Virus record (IMG/VR): IMGVR_UViG_3300045988_108242
Location: 1 to 50,729 of that record
Strand: one strand, 5' to 3'
Length of the DNA stretch: 50,729 bases
DNA from: a virus
Below, piece by piece: positions 16,904 to 46,004 of the stretch. Position 1 is the first letter of the stretch. Every line of letters begins with the position of its first letter. The notes beneath the pieces were generated by a model. That model was not told the origin of the DNA. It saw nothing but the letters and a program-made list of their open reading frames with translations, and did no database searches. A program made the translations under genes and the position numbers.

Positions 16904-18262
16904 TTATCCTACCTTTGTATTTGCCTTATAATCCTTTAAATCGGCTACTGTATAATTGTTCAATGCATACCACAGGGCTGAAAGTACGTGGCTATCGATG
17001 TTAAATTCATCATATATTATATTACCTTGTTTATCTTTTGCATATGTTAAATCTTTTAACTCCCTTATAGAATTCTTACATTTTGGTGAACATACAATTT
17101 TGTGAAATCTCTTGACTTTCTTTGTCCCTGCAAGCCTACTACCGGGGAACTTTTTACAAGCATACATTGTAAATCCTTCCTGTCGATAATACTGTATATC
17201 TTTTGGAGATGCACTATCGGCAAATATTGGTTGGTTACATCTTTCTGCTCTTTCCTTTACTTTCTGCACACTGTCAAGCTTGCTGAATTTATCATCTGTT
17301 ATATGGTTTCTATACACTTCATCATAGATATATAATATTTTGTTTGTATCATCTACCGCACAACTTATCAATGCATTATAACTTGTTTCAAATCCAAAAT
17401 CCAAACCAAAGAAATGATAATGTGCTGGTATGCTGTTTACCGCATTTGCAAACTCTTTTGCGTTCTTTGCAACTGTAAATTTTGGTAGCACTCTCAAACC
17501 ACTTGCTCCAAACCTTCCCCACCTTGCGACAAGCCATAAATGCATATCGCTATTCTTTAGACTATCCAAACGTTTTATATAACTATCTGGCAAAAATGGA
17601 TTATCGTCCGGCAAACTATGATGATAATACACACCATTCTTTTTATTTACAAGTGTGCGCTTTTTGTATACCTCTTTTTCACTTTGTATTATATGTTCTT
17701 TTCCCTTTTCATCTGTATGTACAAAAAATGTATCATACACCCAGTTCTCTTTCCCGATAGGGTTTGTTGTCATTATGAAATGTAATGTTTTATTCGGTTC
17801 ACGAACACGCCCTAAAAGCTCTGTATATGCCGCAAATGTTATCTCACTACATTCTTCCATCCATACAATACTAACACCATGTACAGACTTAATCTTTTCT
17901 ACATTGTCCAATCCTTTGAATATTATCCTACTGCCATTAGGAAAACGTATCTCCATCGGACTTGCTATTGCTATTACTTCACCATTTGTACTGCTTGTGT
18001 ATCGTGCTTCTCTGGAAGATAAAATTCCTAAACCAGTTAGGATTTCTTTGAATAATGCAAAACAACTTTCACGTATTGTATCCTTTACCTGTCTTACTAC
18101 GAGTGCTGTTCTTTTCTCTTCCAACAATTTAAGTATAATCTTTAACGCTACATGATATGACTTACCAGAACCATACCCACCAAATAATAAATATTGTTCA
18201 TACTCCCAGTCTGTCAAAAAATTTGCAAAACGATTAGAAACATCAATGTTCAATTCTGACAT
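16904..18262 (-). CDS. terL: Terminase large subunit (PBSX/XtmB-like)
   Basis: 452 aa with Walker A (LLFGGYGSGKS) and a C-terminal nuclease region carrying conserved acidic residues. Confidence 0.9.
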   Translation of the reverse strand: MSELNIDVSNRFANFLTDWEYEQYLLFGGYGSGKSYHVALKIILKLLEEKRTALVVRQVKDTIRESCFALFKEILTGLGILSSREARYTSSTNGEVIAIASPMEIRFPNGSRIIFKGLDNVEKIKSVHGVSIVWMEECSEITFAAYTELLGRVREPNKTLHFIMTTNPIGKENWVYDTFFVHTDEKGKEHIIQSEKEVYKKRTLVNKKNGVYYHHSLPDDNPFLPDSYIKRLDSLKNSDMHLWLVARWGRFGASGLRVLPKFTVAKNAKEFANAVNSIPAHYHFFGLDFGFETSYNALISCAVDDTNKILYIYDEVYRNHITDDKFSKLDSVQKVKERAERCNQPIFADSASPKDIQYYRQEGFTMYACKKFPGSRLAGTKKVKRFHKIVCSPKCKNSIRELKDLTYAKDKQGNIIYDEFNIDSHVLSALWYALNNYTVADLKDYKANTKVG

Positions 18263-18708: not shown

Positions 18709-18782
18709 TGGGTCATGTAGGACTCGAACCTACGACCGTTCGGTTATGAGCCGAATGTTCTAACCAACTGAACTAATGACCC
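18709..18782 (-). tRNA. tRNA-Met: tRNA-Met (anticodon CAT), elongator-type or possibly Ile2-type
   Basis: Hand-folded cloverleaf: acceptor GGGTCAT/ATGACCC; D arm GTTC-AGTTGGTTA-GAAC; anticodon arm TTCGG-CTCATAA-CCGAA; T arm GTAGG-TTCGAGT-CCTAC; discriminator A. The G1:C72 pair and the lack of a 3xGC anticodon stem argue against an initiator. Confidence 0.9.
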
Positions 18783-18868
18783 TTGTGCGGCTTTTCGCAG
18801 ATGCATGACTACTCAACCGCACTAATCAATGAAGAACTATATATCTTGTGTGCATTATTCATGCACAG

Positions 18869-18940
18869 CTACCCTAACTGGAATCGAACCAATATTACAA
18901 GAGTCAAATTCTTGTGTGCTAACCTTTACACTATAGGGCA
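18869..18940 (-). tRNA. tRNA-Gln: tRNA-Gln (anticodon TTG)
   Basis: Hand-folded cloverleaf: acceptor TGCCCTA/TAGGGTA (U1:A72); D arm GTGT-AAAGGTTA-GCAC; anticodon arm CAAGA-ATTTGAC-TCTTG; T arm ATTGG-TTCGATT-CCAGT; discriminator G. 72 nt. Confidence 0.9.
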
Positions 18941-20249: not shown

Positions 20250-20277
20250 ATTATAACATATATCTTTGTTTTATCAA
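20250..20277 (-). promoter_or_regulatory. Sigma-A-type promoter (TTGATA-16-TGTTATAAT)
   Basis: -35 at 20277..20272, -10 at 20255..20250. Confidence 0.6.
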
Positions 20278-20299
20278 TAATTATTTTAAGCTATTTTGT

Positions 20300-20452
20300 T
20301 TATTTCTTACACTTTACAACCTTTGCTTTTATATTTGGTGTCAAAAATTTTTTAAAATCCTCAATCCACTCACATGCATCTTTCTTGTTCTTAAATTTTA
20401 CAGTTTCAACATTTGCTTTTACTTTCCCATTATTTAATTCTATTGTATACAT
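20300..20452 (-). CDS. Hypothetical small protein (50 aa, below the track cut-off)
   Basis: Hand-translated as MYTIELNNGKVKANVETVKFKNKKDACEWIEDFKKFLTPNIKAKVVKCKK, with AAAAGGAG upstream. Confidence 0.5.
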   Translation of the reverse strand: MYTIELNNGKVKANVETVKFKNKKDACEWIEDFKKFLTPNIKAKVVKCKK

Positions 20453-20474
20453 ATTATTCTCCTTTTCATTTTGT

Positions 20475-20618
20475 TTATTTCAATGTGTCAACTACTGGTT
20501 TAATAATATCATATTCAATAAATACACTTGCCATAACTTCTGCTGTTTCTTTATCAATACCTTGTTTGATTAAATCTTGTTTATATGCTCTCTTTGCTTC
20601 TCTCTGCCCTTTTGTCAT
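20475..20618 (-). CDS. Hypothetical small protein (47 aa, below the track cut-off)
   Basis: Hand-translated as MTKGQREAKRAYKQDLIKQGIDKETAEVMASVFIEYDIIKPVVDTLK. GGAGAGGA lies upstream and a consensus promoter at 20662..20690. Confidence 0.5.
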   Translation of the reverse strand: MTKGQREAKRAYKQDLIKQGIDKETAEVMASVFIEYDIIKPVVDTLK

Positions 20619-20661
20619 TATTTTATTTCCTCTCCTTTTGTTTTCTTTAACTTATGTATTT

Positions 20662-20690
20662 ATTATAACATCTATGTTTTGTTTTGTCAA
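20662..20690 (-). promoter_or_regulatory. Sigma-A-type promoter (TTGACA-17-TGTTATAAT)
   Basis: -35 at 20690..20685, -10 at 20667..20662. Confidence 0.75.
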
Positions 20691-20693
20691 CAG

Positions 20694-20846
20694 TTATTTT
20701 AAATATTTTTTAGCAAACTCTTCATTGCTCATTGTTTTCATATCATAAACATATTCAATAACATCTACACTATTCATTCCCAATCCTTCTACAAGTTCTC
20801 TAACCATTCCTGTTAAATTATTGTTTTTAATAAACTCTTTCTTCAT
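20694..20846 (-). CDS. Hypothetical small protein
   Basis: The track ORF 20694..20903 is trimmed to the ATG at 20846, which lies 8 nt after GGAG. The longer form would include its own promoter. Confidence 0.55.
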   Translation of the reverse strand: MKKEFIKNNNLTGMVRELVEGLGMNSVDVIEYVYDMKTMSNEEFAKKYLK

Positions 20847-20888
20847 GTTCTTAACTCCTTCTCGTTTTGTTTTCTTCTTTATGATTCT

Positions 20889-20916
20889 ATTATAACATAA
20901 CATAGCAGAAAGTCAA
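20889..20916 (-). promoter_or_regulatory. Sigma-A-type promoter (TTGACT-16-TGTTATAAT)
   Basis: -35 at 20916..20911, -10 at 20894..20889. Confidence 0.65.
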
Positions 20917-20937
20917 CAGTTATTTGTAAATATTTTA

Positions 20938-20973
20938 TAATAAAATAAAAAGGACAGAAACAATGTTCTGTCC
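20938..20973 (-). terminator. Rho-independent terminator after the GT-A-like gene
   Basis: Perfect 8-bp stem GGACAGAA/TTCTGTCC (20952..20959 / 20966..20973) with a 6-nt loop, followed on the minus strand by TTTTTATTTTATT. Confidence 0.8.
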
Positions 20974-20981
20974 CCTTCCCT

Positions 20982-21791
20982 TTAGATTCCCTTAATAGGT
21001 ATCTTGATAATCGGATTGTAGTCAATGTACTTTCTGTTCTTTCTTGACCTTCCTTTGTTTGATGTATCCAACCTTACAATATTACTACCCCACTTCTGTC
21101 TTAACAATTCAAACTGTTCTTTCTCACGTTCCATATTACGATACATAACACAACCGCCCTTTTGTTCTGACTGTCTACAAACATAATGGTATTTGTTTAA
21201 CCTCAATGCCCCTCTATACAGGTTCATGTTCTGTAAGGTCATGTCATAATCTTCTTTTAACGGAAGTCTTTCATCATATCGAAGTTCATTCCCTTTCAAG
21301 AAACACTGAAAAGGTCCACCTATGTAGGATGTAGTGCTAAATGGAGAATACTGCCGATATGACATTGTATCACTGTTACAATTCAATCCCCAGAATTTAA
21401 AACCCCAATCATTGCACAATAAGGAATAACGATATAAGAAGTCTAGTAGTTCGTCTGATTTTACTTTTACTTTCTCATACGCATAGGTTCCATCCTCTGA
21501 CATTTCAAAGTGTTCTATGGCTCGTAAATCATCATCAATCAATAACACAATGTCTGCACCGTTTTCAAACTCTGTATCAAGGATATAATTACGAACTCTG
21601 CACAGATTTCCCTGTACACCTTTCGGACACTTCACAATATTTTCTGTATGTTTCGGGTTGAAATCCAGATATGCTTCGTACTCTTCTGGTGCAACATAAA
21701 CTTTACAGAAAGGAATATAACTTAATGTCTCCACCTTATAACGCTTATAAGACGGACAAGCAACAATGATTTCTTTTCCCTTATACTTCAT
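20982..21791 (-). CDS. Putative GT-A-fold glycosyltransferase-like protein (DxD motif)
   Basis: 269 aa. The N-terminal strand IIVACPSYKR and the motif ADIVLLIDDDL are GT-A-like. Overlaps the ParB-like gene by 11 nt. The family assignment is unverified. Confidence 0.4.
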   Translation of the reverse strand: MKYKGKEIIVACPSYKRYKVETLSYIPFCKVYVAPEEYEAYLDFNPKHTENIVKCPKGVQGNLCRVRNYILDTEFENGADIVLLIDDDLRAIEHFEMSEDGTYAYEKVKVKSDELLDFLYRYSLLCNDWGFKFWGLNCNSDTMSYRQYSPFSTTSYIGGPFQCFLKGNELRYDERLPLKEDYDMTLQNMNLYRGALRLNKYHYVCRQSEQKGGCVMYRNMEREKEQFELLRQKWGSNIVRLDTSNKGRSRKNRKYIDYNPIIKIPIKGI

Positions 21792-22425
21792 TACCCTGCA
21801 CCCTTTCTAACGCTTTCTGTCCGTCTAGCACCCTTCCCACTCCTGCTCGCATACCGAATGACTTCTTGTTCCCTTCCTTCTTTGTTGGATACGCCTTTGC
21901 TTTCTCGATTCCAAACAATCCCATAGCATTGAACCAATCAATCTTATTGTTGAACTTCAACACAATGTAATTGTTCTCTTCATTCAATATTTCTGTGAAT
22001 GGTACATCTGGTTCAACTTCTATTGTTTCATCTTCCAATGCATCAATACTAAATCCAAACACTTCCATGTCAATGTCTGATTTCAGAAGTTCACTGATTT
22101 CTTCGTTAATCAATGTTTCATCATAACTGGATTCTGCTGTTTTGTTTTCAATCAATCGCCAAGCCTTGATTTGTTCATCTGTCATATCATCCAGACAGAT
22201 TGTAGGCACTTGTGTCAGTCCTGCTTTCTTTGCCGCAAGGATTCTTCCATGACCTTCAACCACATAACCATCTTTATCAATTGCTACTGCTCTGTGTTCA
22301 AAGAATCCAAACTGCTTAATACTGTTCATAATTCTTTCAACCTGTTCTTTCGGATGTTTCTTTGCATTCTTCTTATAGGGTTTTAAATCCTTTATCTGCC
22401 TATATACTATGTTTAGTTTCTGCAT
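21781..22425 (-). CDS. ParB/Srx-fold (ParB-like nuclease domain) protein
   Basis: 214 aa. The pattern LKPYKKNAKKHPKEQVERIMNSIKQFGF...VVEGHGRILAAKKAGLTQVP matches the ParB N-terminal domain often fused to phage DNA methyltransferases. No methyltransferase part is present here. Confidence 0.75.
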   Translation of the reverse strand: MQKLNIVYRQIKDLKPYKKNAKKHPKEQVERIMNSIKQFGFFEHRAVAIDKDGYVVEGHGRILAAKKAGLTQVPTICLDDMTDEQIKAWRLIENKTAESSYDETLINEEISELLKSDIDMEVFGFSIDALEDETIEVEPDVPFTEILNEENNYIVLKFNNKIDWFNAMGLFGIEKAKAYPTKKEGNKKSFGMRAGVGRVLDGQKALERVQGNEV

Positions 22426-22492
22426 TTGTTTCTCCTTCCTGTTTTGTTCTATGTTTTGTTAATGGTAAACTATAATATATTTATATACTTTT

Positions 22493-22678
22493 TTAGCACA
22501 TATAATATCCTTTTTCTTTTACCATATTATAATCTCGTTCTGTTAATAATATTGTTACTTGTTTTCTTATATCTCCACAGCAATCTGTATCACATATAAG
22601 CTGATATACTAACATATCTTTATATTTTATACGCTTTACACATGTTATGTTATATACATACTTTTCTACAAGGTTCAT
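22493..22678 (-). CDS. Hypothetical Cys-rich small protein
   Basis: 61 aa. Confidence 0.5.
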   Translation of the reverse strand: MNLVEKYVYNITCVKRIKYKDMLVYQLICDTDCCGDIRKQVTILLTERDYNMVKEKGYYMC

Positions 22679-22696
22679 ACTCTACACTCCTTTTGT

Positions 22697-23041
22697 TTAT
22701 TCTTGTATTAACCTTCGTTCTGTCCTTTTATATTTCTCTTGCTTTATTTGTTCTATCTGATTTTGCCTTTCCACACCTAACAGATACTTTATTTGTTCCA
22801 GACATATTTCTACGTCTGCAATTTCTTCTGTTATACTGTACATTACTGTTGGTTCTTTTGTTTTGCAAGTTTTATCTTTTGATTTTATTCTCTGGTATTT
22901 GCAGAACGCCTGTGTAAGCTCTGCCATCTCTTCTGTACATTGTACCATTCTATTTTCCAGTGTAAACTTTTCTGCCTGTTTTTGAATATCATATAATATT
23001 CCCATATTTATTTCTGTCCTCTCCTTCTTAGATTCATCCAT
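22697..23041 (-). CDS. MazG-like all-alpha NTP pyrophosphohydrolase (putative)
   Basis: 114 aa. The EEMAELTQA...ITEEIADVEICLEQI pattern fits EExxE...ExxD. The alternative start ATG at 23005 avoids the overlap with micro-ORF 23008..23160. Confidence 0.55.
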   Translation of the reverse strand: MDESKKERTEINMGILYDIQKQAEKFTLENRMVQCTEEMAELTQAFCKYQRIKSKDKTCKTKEPTVMYSITEEIADVEICLEQIKYLLGVERQNQIEQIKQEKYKRTERRLIQE

Positions 23042-23484: not shown

Positions 23485-23513
23485 ATTATATAATATAACA
23501 AAATATATGTCAA
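23485..23513 (-). promoter_or_regulatory. Sigma-A-type promoter (TTGACA-17-TATAAT)
   Basis: -35 at 23513..23508, -10 at 23490..23485. Confidence 0.75.
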
Positions 23514-23698: not shown

Positions 23699-24211
23699 TT
23701 ACTCATAGATTTCACCGCCCCACTCTTCATCTTCGCTTTCTTCCATCCATTCTTCTGCATTTTCTGCTTTCCATATTTCCTCTTCATCTTGCGCTGTAGG
23801 TGTATAACTTTCTCCCTGCGTTACAAGGTTTATAGTTACATTGTTCTGTATCTTTCCTGTTTTCTTGAACATATCCAGTTTATCCATCATTTGCGTTATC
23901 TCTTTTATAGCACCAACGTCCCCTGTTAAACCTTTTTGGAATAATGCAACCATAAGTAAGCTCTGGTTTGTTAATTCTTCATCTGTAAAACCAAAATTTT
24001 TTAAAATCTGTTTTTTCTTATCACTGTTTGTTTTCATTTCCAATAACTGCCGCATACAGTTTTGTAAAGCCATGTTACGTTCTTTCTTTTTTCTTCTTGC
24101 TTCTACACCTTTCATTGCTATCTCATGACGTTCTTCCGGTGTTCTGTCACGCATATTTATAAGCATACCATCTTCATACGGCTTTGGCACTTGTCCTTTT
24201 TTTAATCCCAT
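23699..24211 (-). CDS. Putative terminase small subunit (DUF5681-like)
   Basis: 170 aa. The N-terminal GLKKGQ, the basic helix region and LFQKGLTGDVGAIKEI resemble small proteins found next to terminases. It has an acidic-Trp tail. It lies 5.4 kb from terL, so the assignment is tentative. Confidence 0.45.
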   Translation of the reverse strand: MGLKKGQVPKPYEDGMLINMRDRTPEERHEIAMKGVEARRKKKERNMALQNCMRQLLEMKTNSDKKKQILKNFGFTDEELTNQSLLMVALFQKGLTGDVGAIKEITQMMDKLDMFKKTGKIQNNVTINLVTQGESYTPTAQDEEEIWKAENAEEWMEESEDEEWGGEIYE

Positions 24212-24439
24212 GCTTTGCTCTCTCCTATTCTTTTTATTTGTAATACTAAAATAAGCAGGGGCGAACCCCTGCTATATATTAAACCTTATTGTCTTAGAGC
24301 GATTGAACTCTTAATATATTTTTTTAAAAGTTTCTTACCAATTACGAAGGGGGCAAACAATAAGGTTTATTCCTTTCACTGGCTGACATTATCCGGCTGT
24401 CACTTATTTATAACTATCCTCTTTATAACTCCTATGATT
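24212..24439 (-). promoter_or_regulatory. Structured untranslated leader with internal intrinsic terminator upstream of the terS-like gene
   Basis: Lies between the promoter at 24440..24468 and the ATG at 24211. It contains a 13-bp long-range helix (24280..24292 / 24357..24369), a CCCCC run (24353..24349) and a terminator hairpin at 24254..24273. There is no credible ORF. Confidence 0.6.
24241..24273 (-). terminator. Rho-independent terminator inside the terS leader
   Basis: Perfect 8-bp GC-rich stem AGCAGGGG/CCCCTGCT with a 4-nt loop, followed on the minus strand by TATTTTAGTATT. Confidence 0.8.
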
Positions 24440-24468
24440 ATATTATCATAAAAGTTACTGCTTGTCAA
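24440..24468 (-). promoter_or_regulatory. Sigma-A-type promoter (TTGACA-17-TGATAATAT) driving the terS leader
   Basis: -35 at 24468..24463, -10 TAATAT at 24445..24440. Confidence 0.7.
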
Positions 24469-24665
24469 CGCTTTTTATTTATTTTTTTCAAGTTTTCTTT
24501 TACCATTGTATAGTATGCACTTCCAAAACTACAGCTTTCTTTTTGCTTTTGTTTTATACGCTCTTTTCTTACCCTTTTAACAACCTTTTGAAACTCCTTA
24601 TATTTCTTGCAATTTATGTGGCACTCTGCACTTCTGTCCACACAACCCTTACATGGTATCGTCAT
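24465..24665 (-). CDS. Small Cys-rich basic protein (CxxC-x6-CH-x2-C)
   Basis: 66 aa (MTIPCKGCVDRSAECHINCKKY...), a probable zinc binder with a Lys/Arg-rich tail. Sits immediately upstream of the terS-leader promoter. Confidence 0.6.
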   Translation of the reverse strand: MTIPCKGCVDRSAECHINCKKYKEFQKVVKRVRKERIKQKQKESCSFGSAYYTMVKENLKKINKKR

Positions 24666-25062
24666 CTTTTATCAGACCTTTACTCCTTAAATAATTTTCC
24701 ACATCACATAAATATAATATTGCTTCTTGCATATCTTCATCCTTAACCATTATAAATCCATTATTGTCCATCTTTGTGAACCTATGCCCCGGAAGCGGAA
24801 ATCCCCTTTCACTCACATTATTTAATTTATATCCCACCTCTTTAATATATTTAACTATAACAGTTAACAGCACTATTACAAAAACAAATGTTTTCATATC
24901 CACTCCTGCATAAAAACAGATTATTGGAATTATTATTTGTATTACTATGGCTATCTTTCCTAACTCTTCAATGACTGCATATTTAAACGCAATCAACAAT
25001 TCTATAAATGTTTCTATCATTGTTTTAAAAACACTTTTTTTTACCTTTTGCATTTTTTTCAT
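24649..25062 (-). CDS. Membrane protein (2-3 TM segments) with a soluble C-terminal domain
   Basis: 137 aa with hydrophobic segments IAIVIQIIIPIICFYAG and FVFVIVLLTVIV. Confidence 0.6.
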   Translation of the reverse strand: MKKMQKVKKSVFKTMIETFIELLIAFKYAVIEELGKIAIVIQIIIPIICFYAGVDMKTFVFVIVLLTVIVKYIKEVGYKLNNVSERGFPLPGHRFTKMDNNGFIMVKDEDMQEAILYLCDVENYLRSKGLIKDDDTM

Positions 25063-35386: not shown

Positions 35387-35420
35387 ATAATAACATAGAG
35401 GTTGAACAAAGTCAACCTCT
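35387..35420 (-). promoter_or_regulatory. Sigma-A-type promoter (TTGACT-17-TGTTATTAT) with the -35 inside a 9-bp perfect hairpin
   Basis: -35 at 35415..35410, -10 at 35392..35387. Inverted repeat AGAGGTTGA/TCAACCTCT at 35397..35405 / 35412..35420. Confidence 0.65.
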
Positions 35421-35424
35421 AATT

Positions 35425-41125: not shown

Positions 41126-41158
41126 ATTATAACAAAAGGCTTGAACTATGTCAAGCCT
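41126..41158 (-). promoter_or_regulatory. Sigma-A-type promoter (TTGACA-17-TGTTATAAT) with the -35 inside an 8-bp perfect hairpin, upstream of dnaE
   Basis: -35 at 41154..41149, -10 at 41131..41126. Inverted repeat AGGCTTGA/TCAAGCCT at 41137..41144 / 41151..41158. Confidence 0.7.
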
Positions 41159-42600: not shown

Positions 42601-43540
42601 ACAATTTCCTCGTTTCTCTTATACATTTTTTTATTTGTTTCTCGTTCATTTCTCCGCAATCTTTTATATTCTCTGGATATTGAAACCTTACTACATTAAA
42701 AAACCTTTCTAAATATTTTGTTCCCTTTATTCCGCATTCATCATTATCAAGTGCGCTAACTACAGTTGTTATACCTTTATCTTTTAACTTCTTTGTTTGT
42801 TCATCCGATATGTGCCACCCTAAAATAGCAACCACATTTTTTATATGTCCTCTTGTTCTTATTGCTAAATAGTCCATGAAACCTTCACAAATATATACCA
42901 CACTGTTTTCAGAATAGTTACCACACAATGTATCACGTTTTCTGAAACCATCGTTATACAGATATTTTCGTTTTTTTTCTACCTGCTTGTTCATTGTTCT
43001 TCCAACCCATCCTCTAAATTCTCCATTATCCAATATGGGGAATAATATTGGATAGCTCAAACTGTAGCTTGCCTTACAACGCCCTATATTCAACGCTCTT
43101 GCGTTAAATCCACGTTTATGCATATATTCTACTACTTGCTTTTCTTCTGTCGTTCTAGGCGTATTCCAGTCTGTTTCATGCAAACCATAATAATATGTAT
43201 ATGCTTCACGAATAGAATTTTTACTATGTTTCTTTCTTCTGTTTCGTATTTTAACTTGTATATTTTTTACTTCATTGCTTCTTACTATTTTTTCGAGTAA
43301 AACACAACACTGTAAGTCATTTAATTTTGGGTTTGCAAACTTTACAAAATCATATGCGTTTCCTTTTGCTCCACATCCAAAACAATAAAAACTTCCTTCC
43401 GCTAAATTTACAACCATACTTGGGTTTGCATCATCGTGGAATGGACAAACAATTTTTATTTGTGTACTTTCTGTTTCATAGATTAGTCCATAATAGATTA
43501 GAACTCTTGCTAAATCGTTTCCGTTATATTTCCTCTGCAT
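42533..43540 (-). CDS. dnaG: DNA primase (DnaG-like: CHC2 zinc finger + Toprim)
   Basis: 335 aa. The zinc finger is CPFHDDANPSMVVNLAEGSFYCFGCGAKG. Toprim-like motifs are VYICEGFMDYLA and SALDNDECG. Confidence 0.85.
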   Translation of the reverse strand: MQRKYNGNDLARVLIYYGLIYETESTQIKIVCPFHDDANPSMVVNLAEGSFYCFGCGAKGNAYDFVKFANPKLNDLQCCVLLEKIVRSNEVKNIQVKIRNRRKKHSKNSIREAYTYYYGLHETDWNTPRTTEEKQVVEYMHKRGFNARALNIGRCKASYSLSYPILFPILDNGEFRGWVGRTMNKQVEKKRKYLYNDGFRKRDTLCGNYSENSVVYICEGFMDYLAIRTRGHIKNVVAILGWHISDEQTKKLKDKGITTVVSALDNDECGIKGTKYLERFFNVVRFQYPENIKDCGEMNEKQIKKCIRETRKLYEISGRNSNRNFTDTKEHRKRI

Positions 43541-44057
43541 CCTGCTTCATTTCCGTTATTTTAATGTATGGTTCTCCTAACTGTAATTCATAACAACCCT
43601 TTAAGTCTTTTGCTTTAATTTCTCCGAGTTCGCTAAGATTGTTTAATTTATCATTGTCAACCTCTTCCATTACGTCAATGAATTTCTTGAACTTCTTAGC
43701 ATCAACTCCACATTGTTTCAAATACTCAATCAATCCTTGCATATTGTTTATTGTGTATGTTTTATTTACAAATTGTTTTATTAAACTTTTAGGAATCCTT
43801 TGTTTTAACTTTTCTATATCCCATATAATCTTTTTTGTTCTTACTTTTGTTACTTTTATGCTTTTATCTCCAACACCAATGTCAAAAGTATTTACATTAT
43901 CTTTTAAATTGCTAAACATGAAATTGGAAATTGCAAGCTGTTCTTTTTTTCTTGTTTCATTATAATACTTGTCAAAGTCCTTCTTTTGCTGTTGGAGATT
44001 GTAAAGAGCTTTTACACTCTTACTTATTTCTTTCATGTTCACTTTCATACTTTTCAC
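43524..44057 (-). CDS. Hypothetical protein
   Basis: 177 aa. The track start is a GTG. ATGs at 44048 and 44036 are alternatives that shorten the overlap with the upstream gene. Confidence 0.55.
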   Translation of the reverse strand: MKSMKVNMKEISKSVKALYNLQQQKKDFDKYYNETRKKEQLAISNFMFSNLKDNVNTFDIGVGDKSIKVTKVRTKKIIWDIEKLKQRIPKSLIKQFVNKTYTINNMQGLIEYLKQCGVDAKKFKKFIDVMEEVDNDKLNNLSELGEIKAKDLKGCYELQLGEPYIKITEMKQDAEEI

Positions 44058-44706
44058 TTATAACCTTTCTGCCATATTCTGTTCTCTGTTTTTTAAGATA
44101 CTTGTTAATATCCATTGGATAAAATCCATCTGCTTCTCTAATGAAAAGTAATTCTTCAAAAGGTAATTCAAATGTATTACCAAAAAAACTTTCTGCCCTC
44201 ACAAGCTTTTTCTTTCTGTTTACGGCGGTTACTTTTGCTGTTCTAAGCTTTCTATATACATTTCCATCTTTTGCTTCTACATAATGAATAAACACCACAA
44301 AAGAACCAACTTTCAATGCATTTTCAAAAACGCTTTCATGTTTTGGTCTTGAATATTTATCAATGATTTCTTCCAACGTTCTTGCGAACGGCAATGGGTA
44401 AAGTCTGTTTTCTTCATGCTGTACAATCTTCTTTTCCTGTTTTGGTTTTTCAATTTCTTCTTTATGTTCCTGTAATACTGGTGCATCCCACTTTTCTTCT
44501 TCTGTTTCAACTTCCTGTTTTACTGGTTCTGCACTTTCTTCAATCTTTTTGTCAATATCTTTTTTATCATCTTCATACCACATAAGTCTGTCAATAAGTT
44601 CTCCTTTATTAAATTTGTGTCCTTTGCTTTCAAGCGGCATCTTTCTTTCTCTGCACATCTGTTTTAATTCTGCTACTTTCATTACTTCTAATTCTGTTTT
44701 ATTCAT
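44020..44706 (-). CDS. HeH/SAP-motif protein
   Basis: The track ORF 44020..44766 is trimmed to the ATG at 44706, which lies 9 nt after GGAG. The longer form would include its own promoter. Motif: MKVAELKQMCRERKMPLESKGHKFNKGELIDRLM. Confidence 0.6.
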   Translation of the reverse strand: MNKTELEVMKVAELKQMCRERKMPLESKGHKFNKGELIDRLMWYEDDKKDIDKKIEESAEPVKQEVETEEEKWDAPVLQEHKEEIEKPKQEKKIVQHEENRLYPLPFARTLEEIIDKYSRPKHESVFENALKVGSFVVFIHYVEAKDGNVYRKLRTAKVTAVNRKKKLVRAESFFGNTFELPFEELLFIREADGFYPMDINKYLKKQRTEYGRKVISEKYESEHERNK

Positions 44707-44737
44707 GTTTTTGTTCTCCTTATTTTTGTTTTTCTTT

Positions 44738-44766
44738 ATTATAACATATATATTTAGTTTTGTCAA
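44738..44766 (-). promoter_or_regulatory. Sigma-A-type promoter (TTGACA-17-TGTTATAAT)
   Basis: -35 at 44766..44761, -10 at 44743..44738. Confidence 0.75.
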
Positions 44767-44767
44767 C

Positions 44768-44866
44768 CTACCAATTTAAAAATTTTAAAACATATCCTAT
44801 AACTATAATACTTGGAATTGGTAGCCAAATAGGTGCTGTCCCTAACAATAAATTTTTTAACTTCAT
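44768..44866 (-). CDS. Small hydrophobic membrane peptide (32 aa, below the track cut-off)
   Basis: Hand-translated as MKLKNLLLGTAPIWLPIPSIIVIGYVLKFLNW. GGAG lies 8 nt upstream, and the stop abuts the next -35 box. Confidence 0.4.
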   Translation of the reverse strand: MKLKNLLLGTAPIWLPIPSIIVIGYVLKFLNW

Positions 44867-44877
44867 GTTTCATTCTC

Positions 44878-45087
44878 CTATCTATGTAAACTTGTTTTCT
44901 GCATATTTAAAAATCTATAAGACATATTATTTACCTCATGTGTTTTCTGTTCTTCATTTAATAAACCAAAGTCTTTCATAGCTGTTAAATATCCATAACA
45001 GTTTGCCATTGCTTCACTGTATGTCATTAAACTTCTTTTCACAGCTACCATTTGTGTATTCTCAAATTCTTTATATTTTTGCATCAT
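44878..45087 (-). CDS. Hypothetical protein
   Basis: 69 aa, with AAGGA upstream. Confidence 0.55.
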   Translation of the reverse strand: MMQKYKEFENTQMVAVKRSLMTYSEAMANCYGYLTAMKDFGLLNEEQKTHEVNNMSYRFLNMQKTSLHR

Positions 45088-45128
45088 TTTGTTTTCCTTT
45101 CTTTTGCTTACCTTTTGTTTACATCTTC

Positions 45129-45157
45129 ATTATACTACTTACATTTTTGTTTGTCAA
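45129..45157 (-). promoter_or_regulatory. Sigma-A-type promoter (TTGACA-17-TATAAT)
   Basis: -35 at 45157..45152, -10 at 45134..45129. Confidence 0.75.
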
Positions 45158-45180
45158 TAATATAATTGAAACTTGTTTTT

Positions 45181-45435
45181 TTATATTTCTCTTTTCAATT
45201 CTAACACATCAAAGTTAAATTGATTTATGATTTGCTCTCGTTCTTCATCTGTTAAAACTTCAATATCCCAAAAGGCTCTCACATATCCTCTGAACTGTGT
45301 TTCATAATCCTTTTTATAATCAAGAAATTCTTCAAAAGAAATTTCTCCATTATTATATTGAATTGCTCTATGCTTAATTCTTTTAAGTAAGAAGTTTTTT
45401 CTTTCTTTAATTTTCTTCAATGCTAATGTTTTCAT
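45181..45435 (-). CDS. Hypothetical protein
   Basis: The track ORF starts at a TTG (45450). The ATG at 45435 lies 8 nt after GGAGG. Confidence 0.55.
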   Translation of the reverse strand: MKTLALKKIKERKNFLLKRIKHRAIQYNNGEISFEEFLDYKKDYETQFRGYVRAFWDIEVLTDEEREQIINQFNFDVLELKREI

Positions 45436-45488
45436 GTTCATTTCCTCCAACCTTTTGTTTTATTTTGTTTTCCTTACCTTGTAACTAT

Positions 45489-45524
45489 ATTATATATCAC
45501 AAGGGGTTGTTTTGTCAACCCCTT
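45489..45524 (-). promoter_or_regulatory. Sigma-A-type promoter (TTGACA-18-TATAAT) with the -35 inside a 9-bp perfect hairpin
   Basis: -35 at 45518..45513, -10 at 45494..45489. Inverted repeat AAGGGGTTG/CAACCCCTT at 45501..45509 / 45516..45524. Confidence 0.65.
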
Positions 45525-45536
45525 TTTGATATTTTT

Positions 45537-46004
45537 TTATGCAATACAAAACCTTTTTGCTGATTCTTTTACAATCTGTGAACCATATTTTGTTCTTATA
45601 TCTGTCATCGTTGTTTTACCATAACTTCTTGTCACTTCTTCTGGATTGTGCCAATACCACATCTTCTTTTTACTCGCCCATCTAAAGCCATTTGCTTTCA
45701 ACTCTGTTTTACATCCATATGTATTTCCGCTTACCCAAATCCATGAACCACAAATTTCTATGTCAATATTCAGATTGATAATACTGTTAATAGCATTTCT
45801 TAACATTTCATCTTCTGCCATGTTATATTTACTTTTGTTTTCTGTATCGCTGTTTTTAAGGACTTTGAAAAGTTCCTCATATTCTACATTGATAATTTTG
45901 ATTGCTTCATCAGAGCCACCGTTATCTGGATGATTCTCCTTTACAAGTCTTTTGTATTCTTTTCTTAACTGCTCTAATGTTTCAATGTTTTTAAAATATT
46001 TCAT
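45537..46004 (-). CDS. J-domain (DnaJ-like, HPD motif) protein with a Trp-rich C-terminal domain
   Basis: 155 aa. LEQLRKEYKRLVKENHPDNGGSDEAIKIINVEYEEL is a canonical J-domain helix II-HPD-helix III. The C-terminal pattern is GSWIWVSG...GFRWASKKKMWYW. Confidence 0.8.
   Translation of the reverse strand: MKYFKNIETLEQLRKEYKRLVKENHPDNGGSDEAIKIINVEYEELFKVLKNSDTENKSKYNMAEDEMLRNAINSIINLNIDIEICGSWIWVSGNTYGCKTELKANGFRWASKKKMWYWHNPEEVTRSYGKTTMTDIRTKYGSQIVKESAKRFCIA

Follow-up and report, generated by a model that had tools for sequence, protein, structure and literature searches.

The DNA analysed here, which we call the window, is the whole of the 50,729-nt IMG/VR virus record IMGVR_UViG_3300045988_108242, a phage genome of the virulent type that encodes a DNA polymerase and a primase of its own and carries all genes on the minus strand. 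It contains a leader of about 190 nt without open reading frame (ORF), which is located between a promoter and the ribosome-binding site (RBS) of a gene for a 170-aa protein, designated terS-like in the following, and which harbors a two-hairpin core (P1 and P2), a large hairpin domain (P3) and an intrinsic terminator (Table 1). The near-consensus promoter, the ORF-free stretch, a CCCCC run, the RBS AGGAGAG and the ATG at 24211 had been described in an earlier note on this sequence, and all of them are present on the minus strand as placed there. The promoter consists of TTGACA (24468..24463) and TAATAT (24445..24440), which corresponds to a score of 10/12, plus an extended -10 TG (24448..24447). 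Since about 25 promoters of comparable quality lie on the minus strand of the window, this match alone is unremarkable. According to the ORF list, no minus-strand ORF of at least 30 aa is present between 24212 and 24464, and the sole ORF listed within the leader is a mechanical one on the plus strand (24215..24451).

Table 1. Features of the terS-like leader and its surroundings, in window coordinates.
Feature	Position	Strand	Remarks
66-aa Cys-rich basic ORF	24465..24665	-	PCxxCxxRxxxCHxxCxxYxxF; TGA stop within the -35 hexamer of the leader promoter
sigmaA/sigma70-type promoter	24440..24468	-	TTGACA, 17 nt, extended -10 TG, TAATAT; predicted start near 24433
Two-hairpin core RNA	24376..24434	-	purine-rich GGAG (24432..24429), P1, linker AUAA, P2
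P1 hairpin	24408..24428	-	arms 24428..24423 and 24413..24408; loop GGAU 24419..24416
P2 hairpin with one-base bulge	24382..24403	-	arms 24403..24398 and 24388..24382; A24384 bulged; loop starts with GCC
P3 domain	24280..24369	-	15-bp closing helix around a 60-nt variable insert
Intrinsic terminator (predicted)	24245..24273	-	AGCAGGGG-UUCG-CCCCUGCU, then U-rich tract
RBS and 170-aa terS-like gene	23699..24226	-	AGGAGAG 24226..24220; ATG 24211
Perfect consensus promoter TTGACA-17-TATAAT	23485..23513	-	directly 3' of the terS-like gene

The terminator hairpin, AGCAGGGG-UUCG-CCCCUGCU at 24273..24254 followed by UAUUUUAGU, comprises eight pairs, six of them GC, with -14.6 kcal/mol and a pair probability of ~1.0, which confirms the GC-rich 8-bp hairpin plus U-tract of the earlier note, and it lies ~40 nt upstream of the terS-like start codon. 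As a promoter scan found no promoter-like site between this terminator and the ATG, the terS-like gene can be assumed to depend on read-through. A terminator scan detected none from 32291 to 24273, so that upstream operons can also read into the unit. The closing helix of P3 (24369..24355 with 24294..24280), in which the long-range helix noticed earlier is recovered, comprises 15 bp with one G.U rather than the 13 bp described; its pair probability is ~0.94, its length was reached by 0/300 shuffles, and the CCCCC run (24353..24349) lies inside its insert. Taken as a whole, the leader has an ordinary folding energy (z = -0.22), so energy alone cannot support a structure, and the sequence of the window alone would not carry the case.

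Relatives of the leader were gathered by anchoring on homologs of the 170-aa terS-like protein in the cultured Clostridium phages CS266P1-4, Dulem virus 36, IMG/VR contigs, one metagenome-assembled genome and assemblies with distant homologs (loci are numbered with L below). About 18 distinct leader types share the order of promoter, core, P3, terminator, RBS and terS-like gene, in agreement with the proposal that promoter, structured leader and terminator form a conserved unit before this gene, and the sequences of P1, P3 and terminator are replaced wholesale among these types. In each related leader TTGACA-17-TAnnAT, nearly always with the TG, is found at the same place, while spacer and flanks vary. 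The transcript starts with a purine-rich GGNG, which is followed by the two hairpins, an A-rich linker and P3, the 5' arm of which begins 71-85 nt after the -10 in 12 lineages. The closing helices of P3 range from 11 to 24 bp, with at least 10 unrelated sequences, and enclose an unconserved insert of 23-132 nt; in L002, L034 and L054 P3 is reduced to a short hairpin. A GC-rich hairpin with a U-rich tail, different in sequence from lineage to lineage, is present at the position of the terminator in every leader type except the minimal one of L031-33, and the one of Dulem virus 36 is the strongest of the set (-15.3 kcal/mol). The leader of L031-33 has only 127 nt and lacks P3 as well as a separate terminator; there, P2 with the subsequent U-run may serve as terminator. 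In L071 (2140-2500), P3 and terminator are duplicated in tandem, giving two modules of ~150 nt with ~85-90% similarity behind a single core. As a separate observation, the CS266 and L024 types (L001 3185-3215) carry a second UGGUAGCC motif in the P3 insert, directly after the 5' arm, followed by a conserved CAU[A/U]UAU..UC[G/A]UGGUACAAGA; this copy may represent a second binding site or the remnant of a duplication.

Judged from the alignment of these relatives, the core is the most conserved part of the leader, and it had not been noticed in the earlier note. A covariance model of the 5' region finds a single copy in the window, at 24434..24376 with 61 bits (E = 5e-15), the next-best match in the window having 12 bits, and likewise one in Dulem virus 36, the genome of which is complete. 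Second copies, as in nut- or put-like pairs, were found neither in the window nor in the full Dulem 36 genome with filters off. RNAalifold, applied to 26 distinct sequences, predicts P1 and a P2 with a one-base bulge, which unifies the window type GUGACA...UGUC[A]GC and the common type GUGGUA...UGCC[U]AC; a first model of P2 in the register UGGUAG/CUACCA left two mismatches in the window type and was replaced by the bulged form. In the 26 sequences, 95.8% of the cells of the core structure form standard pairs versus 27-46% in controls with slid partners, and 0/500 shuffles do as well. All six pairs of P1 (6/6) change on both sides across the lineages, with the arm variants UUAUAA, UUGUGC, GUACA, AUCCU, CGGUG and AGUCAA. 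In P2, 98.7% of the cells pair, and two pairs show compensatory changes from G-C to A-U. L072, which was missed by the covariance model, fits P2 by eye with three compensated pairs. The check for conservation and covariation in relatives, which the earlier note had suggested, has therefore turned out in favor of its helices, as these covary.

Loops and linker of the core are conserved beyond the need of pairing, with GGAU in the P1 loop, (R)UAAG in the linker and GCC...AAA at the ends of the P2 loop as invariant unpaired bases. The core has a size of 55-65 nt across the relatives and begins ~8-15 nt from the predicted start, and the lengths of its loops vary from 9 to 20 nt between lineages. 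A candidate loop-loop contact of two pairs could be formed by GG of the P1 loop with CC of the P2 loop. L071, the only sequence with A for G, has U for C, which is one compensatory event, and in L072, read by eye, the corresponding pair is G.U. Possibly P1 and P2 dock in this way, which we regard as a lead and not as a result. Furthermore, the long helices contain 14 G.U pairs on the sense strand only, which would give A.C in antisense, and no lineage folds better in antisense. Since G.U occurs only on the sense strand, it is most likely that the conserved object is an RNA transcribed in the direction of the gene. Several other ideas on this region were dropped. GGA or GGNG recurs 5' of P1 and in the P1 loop, but CsrA-type GGA sites or a 5' stabiliser similar to a Shine-Dalgarno sequence are speculation, the 5' motif often being GGUG. 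Short ORFs within the core are, by inspection, not kept between lineages, which speaks against a leader peptide, and a replication origin near the leader does not agree with the GC skew, which is uniform and without break near 24 kb. GGTAGC resembles the RfaH ops core and AGUGGUAG the tRNA D-loop, over 6-8 nt each, which is presumably coincidence; for ops we assume this because the likeness is short and no NusG paralogue was found.

A competition between terminator and upstream leader was evaluated by the best duplex of the terminator 5' arm with the leader in 15 lineages, with 200 shuffles each. A competing helix is significant in L034 and also in L071, where the match is its own duplicated copy, and the shuffle fractions of the others are 0.08-0.96. 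No conserved helix that is mutually exclusive with the terminator was found across these 15 lineages. The earlier note had proposed that the CCCCU run pairs with AGGGG as an antiterminator, but this duplex reaches only -8.4 to -9.0 versus -14.6 kcal/mol for the terminator, 8% of the shuffles match it, and it has no equivalent in other lineages, so that the proposal was given up.

The 170-aa protein matches phrog_2412, which is an unannotated PHROG, and no TerS family of Pfam. A weak sub-threshold match to DUF5681 is found in 26/26 of the terS-like members tested. A homolog in Streptococcus phage Javan213 with 37% identity over 92 aa is encoded directly upstream of terL and overlaps it, and because of this neighborhood the label terS-like, taken over from the earlier note, is reasonable and can be used with moderate confidence. 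The AlphaFold2 (AF2) model of the terS-like protein has a pLDDT of 57.7, too low for a fold search, and a sequence search of the PDB found nothing. In the window, terL (16904..18262) is not adjacent to the terS-like gene but 5.4 kb away; the interval from leader to terL contains consensus promoters at 23513, 20916, 20690 and 20277 as well as a terminator at 20973. Dulem 36 has a consensus promoter (47749) directly after its terS-like gene, and CS266P3 has several promoters before terL. Due to these downstream promoters it is assumed that the gate is confined to the terS-like gene or a short unit and does not extend to the whole late operon, and the promoter at 23513 gives the downstream genes a predicted start that is independent of the leader. 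A late-operon switch in the style of lambda PR'-tR', as put forward in the earlier note, does not go along with this distance to terL and with the promoters and the terminator in between.

The gene of the 66-aa Cys-rich protein precedes the leader promoter in 17/18 leader types, and the alignment of the family has invariant C5, C8, R11, C15, H16, C19 and Y22. The protein has no Pfam match and a weak match to a PHROG without annotation, and none of 110 homologs bears a name or domain. Its AF2 model (pLDDT 87.6) consists of an N-terminal Cys/His knuckle and one long basic helix (residues 20-65), for which a fold search in the PDB gave no match. The complete 53.8-kb genome of Dulem virus 36 contains no homolog (best six-frame match of a hidden Markov model, E = 1.5), although it keeps promoter, core and strong terminator; here, the -35 overlaps with the stop codon of a membrane-protein gene located directly before it. 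Moreover, distant relatives of the Cys-rich protein in other phages are directly followed by other genes, without an intergenic leader or core motif. The protein may be named a candidate partner of the leader, with synteny among related, not independent, genomes as the evidence. As Dulem 36 keeps the leader without it, an obligate role is weakened. The membrane protein mentioned is a further constant neighbor: in the window (24649-25062, minus strand) and in all relatives, a gene for a predicted membrane protein of 125-140 aa with a conserved C-terminal LYL..VE.YL..KG always precedes the Cys-protein gene, or directly the promoter in Dulem 36; this protein is assigned to no family.

Scans of the leader against Rfam with permissive E-values gave no match in the window or in seven related loci, so that the comparison suggested in the earlier note yielded no relevant family; the best scores were 22-23 bits versus cut-offs of 65-102, which is less than half of the gathering score. 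A match to RAGATH-17 with 23 bits covers the terminator hairpin only and was rejected. Exact-pattern scans for the core in IMG/VR and in a metagenome collection found true leaders from this clade only, and all of those with enough flank have the terS-like gene at most 1.1 kb downstream. The remaining matches, six in IMG/VR and three in the metagenomes, the latter GC-rich, lie outside a leader context and are due to chance. Promoter, core, P3 and terminator are kept across these sequences, with helices that covary, the element occurs once per genome, and its link to the terS-like gene is exclusive. By this distribution, the leader belongs in cis to a single gene family and is restricted to a single clade of phages, that of gut Clostridia. 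One contig (NFZD01003831.1, 99,679 bp, L086/L102) carries the same core at two places, which may be due to the assembly of a ~50-kb genome as a dimer or concatemer. The leader is a candidate for a new Rfam family and may be among the 8,495 unnamed candidates of a published catalogue of phage structured RNAs (PMC10690425).

The reading that we prefer, with a probability of roughly 45%, is that transcription into the terS-like gene is gated by a clade-specific leader RNA, which acts in cis and controls read-through of its own terminator. Host RNA polymerase would start at the strong sigmaA-type promoter, transcribe the core with P1 and P2, which are possibly docked loop to loop, and then P3, and would finally meet the intrinsic terminator, so that the terS-like gene would be made by read-through alone. 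The core would be the control element, to which a trans-acting factor or the polymerase itself binds, and it would make the elongating polymerase resistant to the terminator in the manner of N/nut, HK022 put or conAn, with no competing antiterminator helix involved. What we infer is that the read-through is under control and not simply leaky, that the core acts as the sensor, and that the polymerase becomes modified. With two terminators behind a single core, as in L071, a local switch could not control the second one, whereas a modified polymerase could. This arrangement and the lack of a competing helix beyond L034 favor a core that changes the polymerase, either directly or via a factor. 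A more specific form of this reading, in which the core is a new antitermination RNA of Gram-positive phages that acts on the polymerase or docks a small factor and thereby licenses a packaging protein, appears somewhat unlikely to us.

Several points weigh against gating by a core that acts on the polymerase. Termination and read-through at the leader are themselves predictions. In the window, the six pairs of P1 are all A-U, with a pair probability of 0.04-0.07, and P2 with -3.9 kcal/mol and a pair probability of 0.3 is thermodynamically marginal, whereas in the CS266 phages the two hairpins fold at -8.6 and -6.9 kcal/mol; since P1 and P2 of the window are weak alone, the case for the core rests on the comparison with the relatives. 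P3 always folds back and thus keeps core and terminator close, which fits a local mechanism equally well or better. The P2 of L034 has a 3' arm that can pair with the terminator 5' arm (-13.2 kcal/mol, 0/200 shuffles) and is identical to the terminator 3' arm, which looks like a classic local switch in that lineage only. Moreover, several leader terminators have poor U-tracts, so that a constitutive leak could suffice. No Q, N, NusG-like, sigma or ANTAR protein was found by Pfam and PHROG scans of the window ORFs, which covered 38 small or unannotated ORFs and 30 ORFs scanned earlier, and Dulem 36 does without the only candidate partner, the Cys-rich protein. For an RNA that acts alone like put, a terminator directly after it would be without obvious purpose.

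The weak U-tracts are also compatible with an explanation in which the segment from promoter to terminator is a small RNA gene, the product of which (~190 nt in the window, 85-300 nt in relatives) is stable or acts in trans with the core as functional module, offering a surface for protein binding or target pairing, while the terS-like gene is expressed by constitutive leak. A single-copy unit with its own strong promoter and terminator and no ORF in between has the form of such a gene, the bases GGAU, UAAG and GCC...AAA are kept beyond the need of pairing, and upstream operons can read in, as no terminator was detected between 32291 and 24273. Yet the element is always found immediately 5' of the terS-like RBS and never apart from it, which is the pattern of a cis element, the duplicated terminators of L071 would not help a small RNA, and a search of the minus-strand transcripts of the window for a target complementary to the conserved 11-mer gave nothing beyond chance; we therefore consider a small RNA gene unlikely. 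The model of the earlier note, a switch similar to lambda Q or N with the 66-aa protein as antiterminator, draws on the Cys-protein gene ending at or in the -35 hexamer in the 17/18 leader types, on an order of regulator gene, promoter, ~190-nt leader and terminator that matches lambda Q-PR'-tR', and on a Zn-knuckle-like N-terminus and long basic helix in the protein model, which would be plausible for binding to nucleic acids or polymerase. This order goes back to synteny among related genomes and is not independent evidence, Dulem 36 combines promoter, core and the strongest terminator (-15.3 kcal/mol) with the lack of any homolog, and distant members of the Cys family have neither leader nor core motif after them. 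Given a protein without a match among Q, N and other annotated families or among solved folds, a unit that is not at the head of the late operon, and aligned promoters in which inspection reveals no conserved -10-like pause element in the initially transcribed region, an antiterminator role of this protein is quite unlikely.

Equally improbable in our view is a local attenuator, riboswitch-like or protein-mediated, in which a metabolite or an RNA-binding protein, e.g., the terS-like protein by feedback, shifts the structure at the terminator; the riboswitch-like attenuator had been the alternative of the earlier note. The compact core with its invariant loop bases and possible loop-loop contact would suit such a mechanism, P3 keeps core and terminator adjacent at any insert length, the strict tie to one gene family fits autoregulation, L034 has a three-way competition of P2, antiterminator and terminator, and in L031-33 P2 with the U-run may itself be the terminator. 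Outside L034, however, no competing helix is better than chance, a single aptamer cannot explain the tandem terminators of L071, the leader matches no riboswitch class of Rfam, the gated gene is not metabolic, and the motif is confined to one phage clade. Finally, the element could act as DNA, as a cruciform or as a pac recognition region bound by the terS-like protein, like the region upstream of terS in SPP1-type phages. Pac sites are indeed known to lie near terS, the element adjoins the terS-like gene, and repeated motifs are present (GGTAGCC twice in CS266-type leaders, CAGCC twice in the window type). In duplex DNA or on the opposite strand, however, the 14 G.U pairs of the sense strand would turn into A.C mismatches, loops of 9-20 nt and inserts of 23-132 nt vary more than a spaced DNA operator would permit, and promoter and terminator bracket the element exactly, which makes a function at the DNA level very improbable.

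Among known systems, the locus resembles the lambda PR'-qut-6S RNA-tR'/Q module in that a small gene ends at a constitutive sigma70-type promoter, which is followed by a non-coding leader of ~190 nt, a strong intrinsic terminator and genes dependent on read-through. Lambda Q acts via a DNA site and a sigma-dependent pause and not via conserved RNA hairpins. By inspection, spacer and early transcribed sequence of the leaders differ from lineage to lineage and have no -10-like hexamer in common. Unlike in lambda, the 66-aa protein shows no match to a Q family or fold, one leader-bearing lineage lacks it, and the leader would gate the terS-like gene or a short unit instead of the late operon as a whole. 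Similar to lambda N/nut, a small basic protein could be recruited by a hairpin near the promoter that has conserved bases in its loop, and a large hairpin domain lies between this site and the first gene as in the lambda N leader. In contrast to N/nut, no boxA-like sequence was seen in the leaders by inspection, the leader has one site only, its terminator comes before the first gene, and the candidate basic protein has a Cys/His knuckle instead of an arginine-rich peptide and is not universal.

The put RNA of phage HK022 suppresses termination without any protein factor, through the zinc-binding domain of the beta' subunit of RNA polymerase. A similar RNA-centred mechanism would explain why no recognisable antiterminator protein is present. 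HK022 putL has ~70 nt and two stem-loops and is located just downstream of PL (PMC9378689). The core likewise is a two-stem-loop RNA, of 55-65 versus ~70 nt, after a strong promoter and before terminators, a likeness of gross anatomy only. It differs from put by its much shorter stems of 5-6 bp, by one copy per genome versus two, by the terminator that follows in the same leader and by the Gram-positive host, and its activity is presumed. No curated RNA family matches the leader, so homology to put finds no support there, although Rfam may hold no put model. In Gram-positive elements, the conAn RNA, which has a long flanking inverted repeat, antiterminates together with a small protein (PMC8191782); its stem-loops are essential and the flanking repeat is dispensable (PMC8191782). 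A small protein gene followed by a large non-coding RNA with a long inverted repeat around a variable centre, in Firmicutes, is common to both systems. However, conAn heads conjugation operons and has no promoter between protein gene and RNA, and the leader described here differs by its phage context and its terminator; no homology is evident, and the resemblance is architectural only. With the riboswitches, T-boxes and protein-dependent attenuators of Firmicutes the leader shares a covarying 5' domain and an intrinsic terminator before the gene, but not a conserved terminator/antiterminator competition or an Rfam class, and it stands before a packaging-type gene in one clade. On these comparisons, the element is best described as a putative new, clade-restricted leader RNA family with known regulatory logic.

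To our knowledge, very few RNA-based antitermination or attenuation systems have been described in Gram-positive phages and none in phages of gut Clostridia, and the only polymerase-modifying RNAs that we know of are put, EAR and conAn. A core that modifies RNA polymerase would form a new class beside these three. It would then be the first put/nut-type system described for Clostridia phages, with a fold without known relatives. If the core senses a ligand or the TerS-like protein, it would represent a new phage checkpoint on DNA packaging. The compact core of ~60 nt, with its compensatory pairs mapped and its presence in the cultured phages CS266P1-4, is amenable to mutation and terminator-reporter assays. 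The proposed gate would also show how phages that are rich in consensus host promoters can still impose gene-specific control.

Further observations concern the surroundings of the leader and of terL. On the minus strand between the terS-like gene and terL (20982-23041) are encoded a MazG-like NTP pyrophosphohydrolase (22697-23041), a ParB_N-like protein (21781-22425) and a TET-associated glycosyltransferase (TAGT, 20982-21791), and L071, L072, L074 and L077 carry at the same place ParB_N plus TAGT, QueT or a radical SAM protein. This cluster of the DNA-modification type suggests that the DNA of the clade may be hypermodified. The three promoters at 20916, 20690 and 20277 (region 20250-20930, minus strand) are strong and near-identical, CTGTTGAC[T/A]...TGTTATAAT, and each precedes an ORF of ~45-50 aa in a 750-nt stretch just after the terminator at 20973. 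The Rfam gathering scan of the whole window returned two tRNAs only. These genes, Met-CAT and Gln-TTG, lie near the upstream side of the terL region (18709-18782 and 18868-18940, minus strand), and L031 and L034 also have tRNAs a few kb downstream of their terS-like gene. In L106 (CS266P3, 42931-45959) and L075 (Dulem 36, 1-2190), terL is annotated in pieces that are separated by genes for I-HmuI or other endonucleases, which suggests insertions of introns or homing endonucleases. At 41137-41158 and 35396-35421 (minus strand), the terminator-like hairpins AGGCTTGACATAGTTCAAGCCT and TAGAGGTTGACTTTGTTCAACCTCTA hold the -35 of the next promoter in their stem or loop, so that the signals for termination and re-initiation overlap there, in an order that is the reverse of that in the leader studied.

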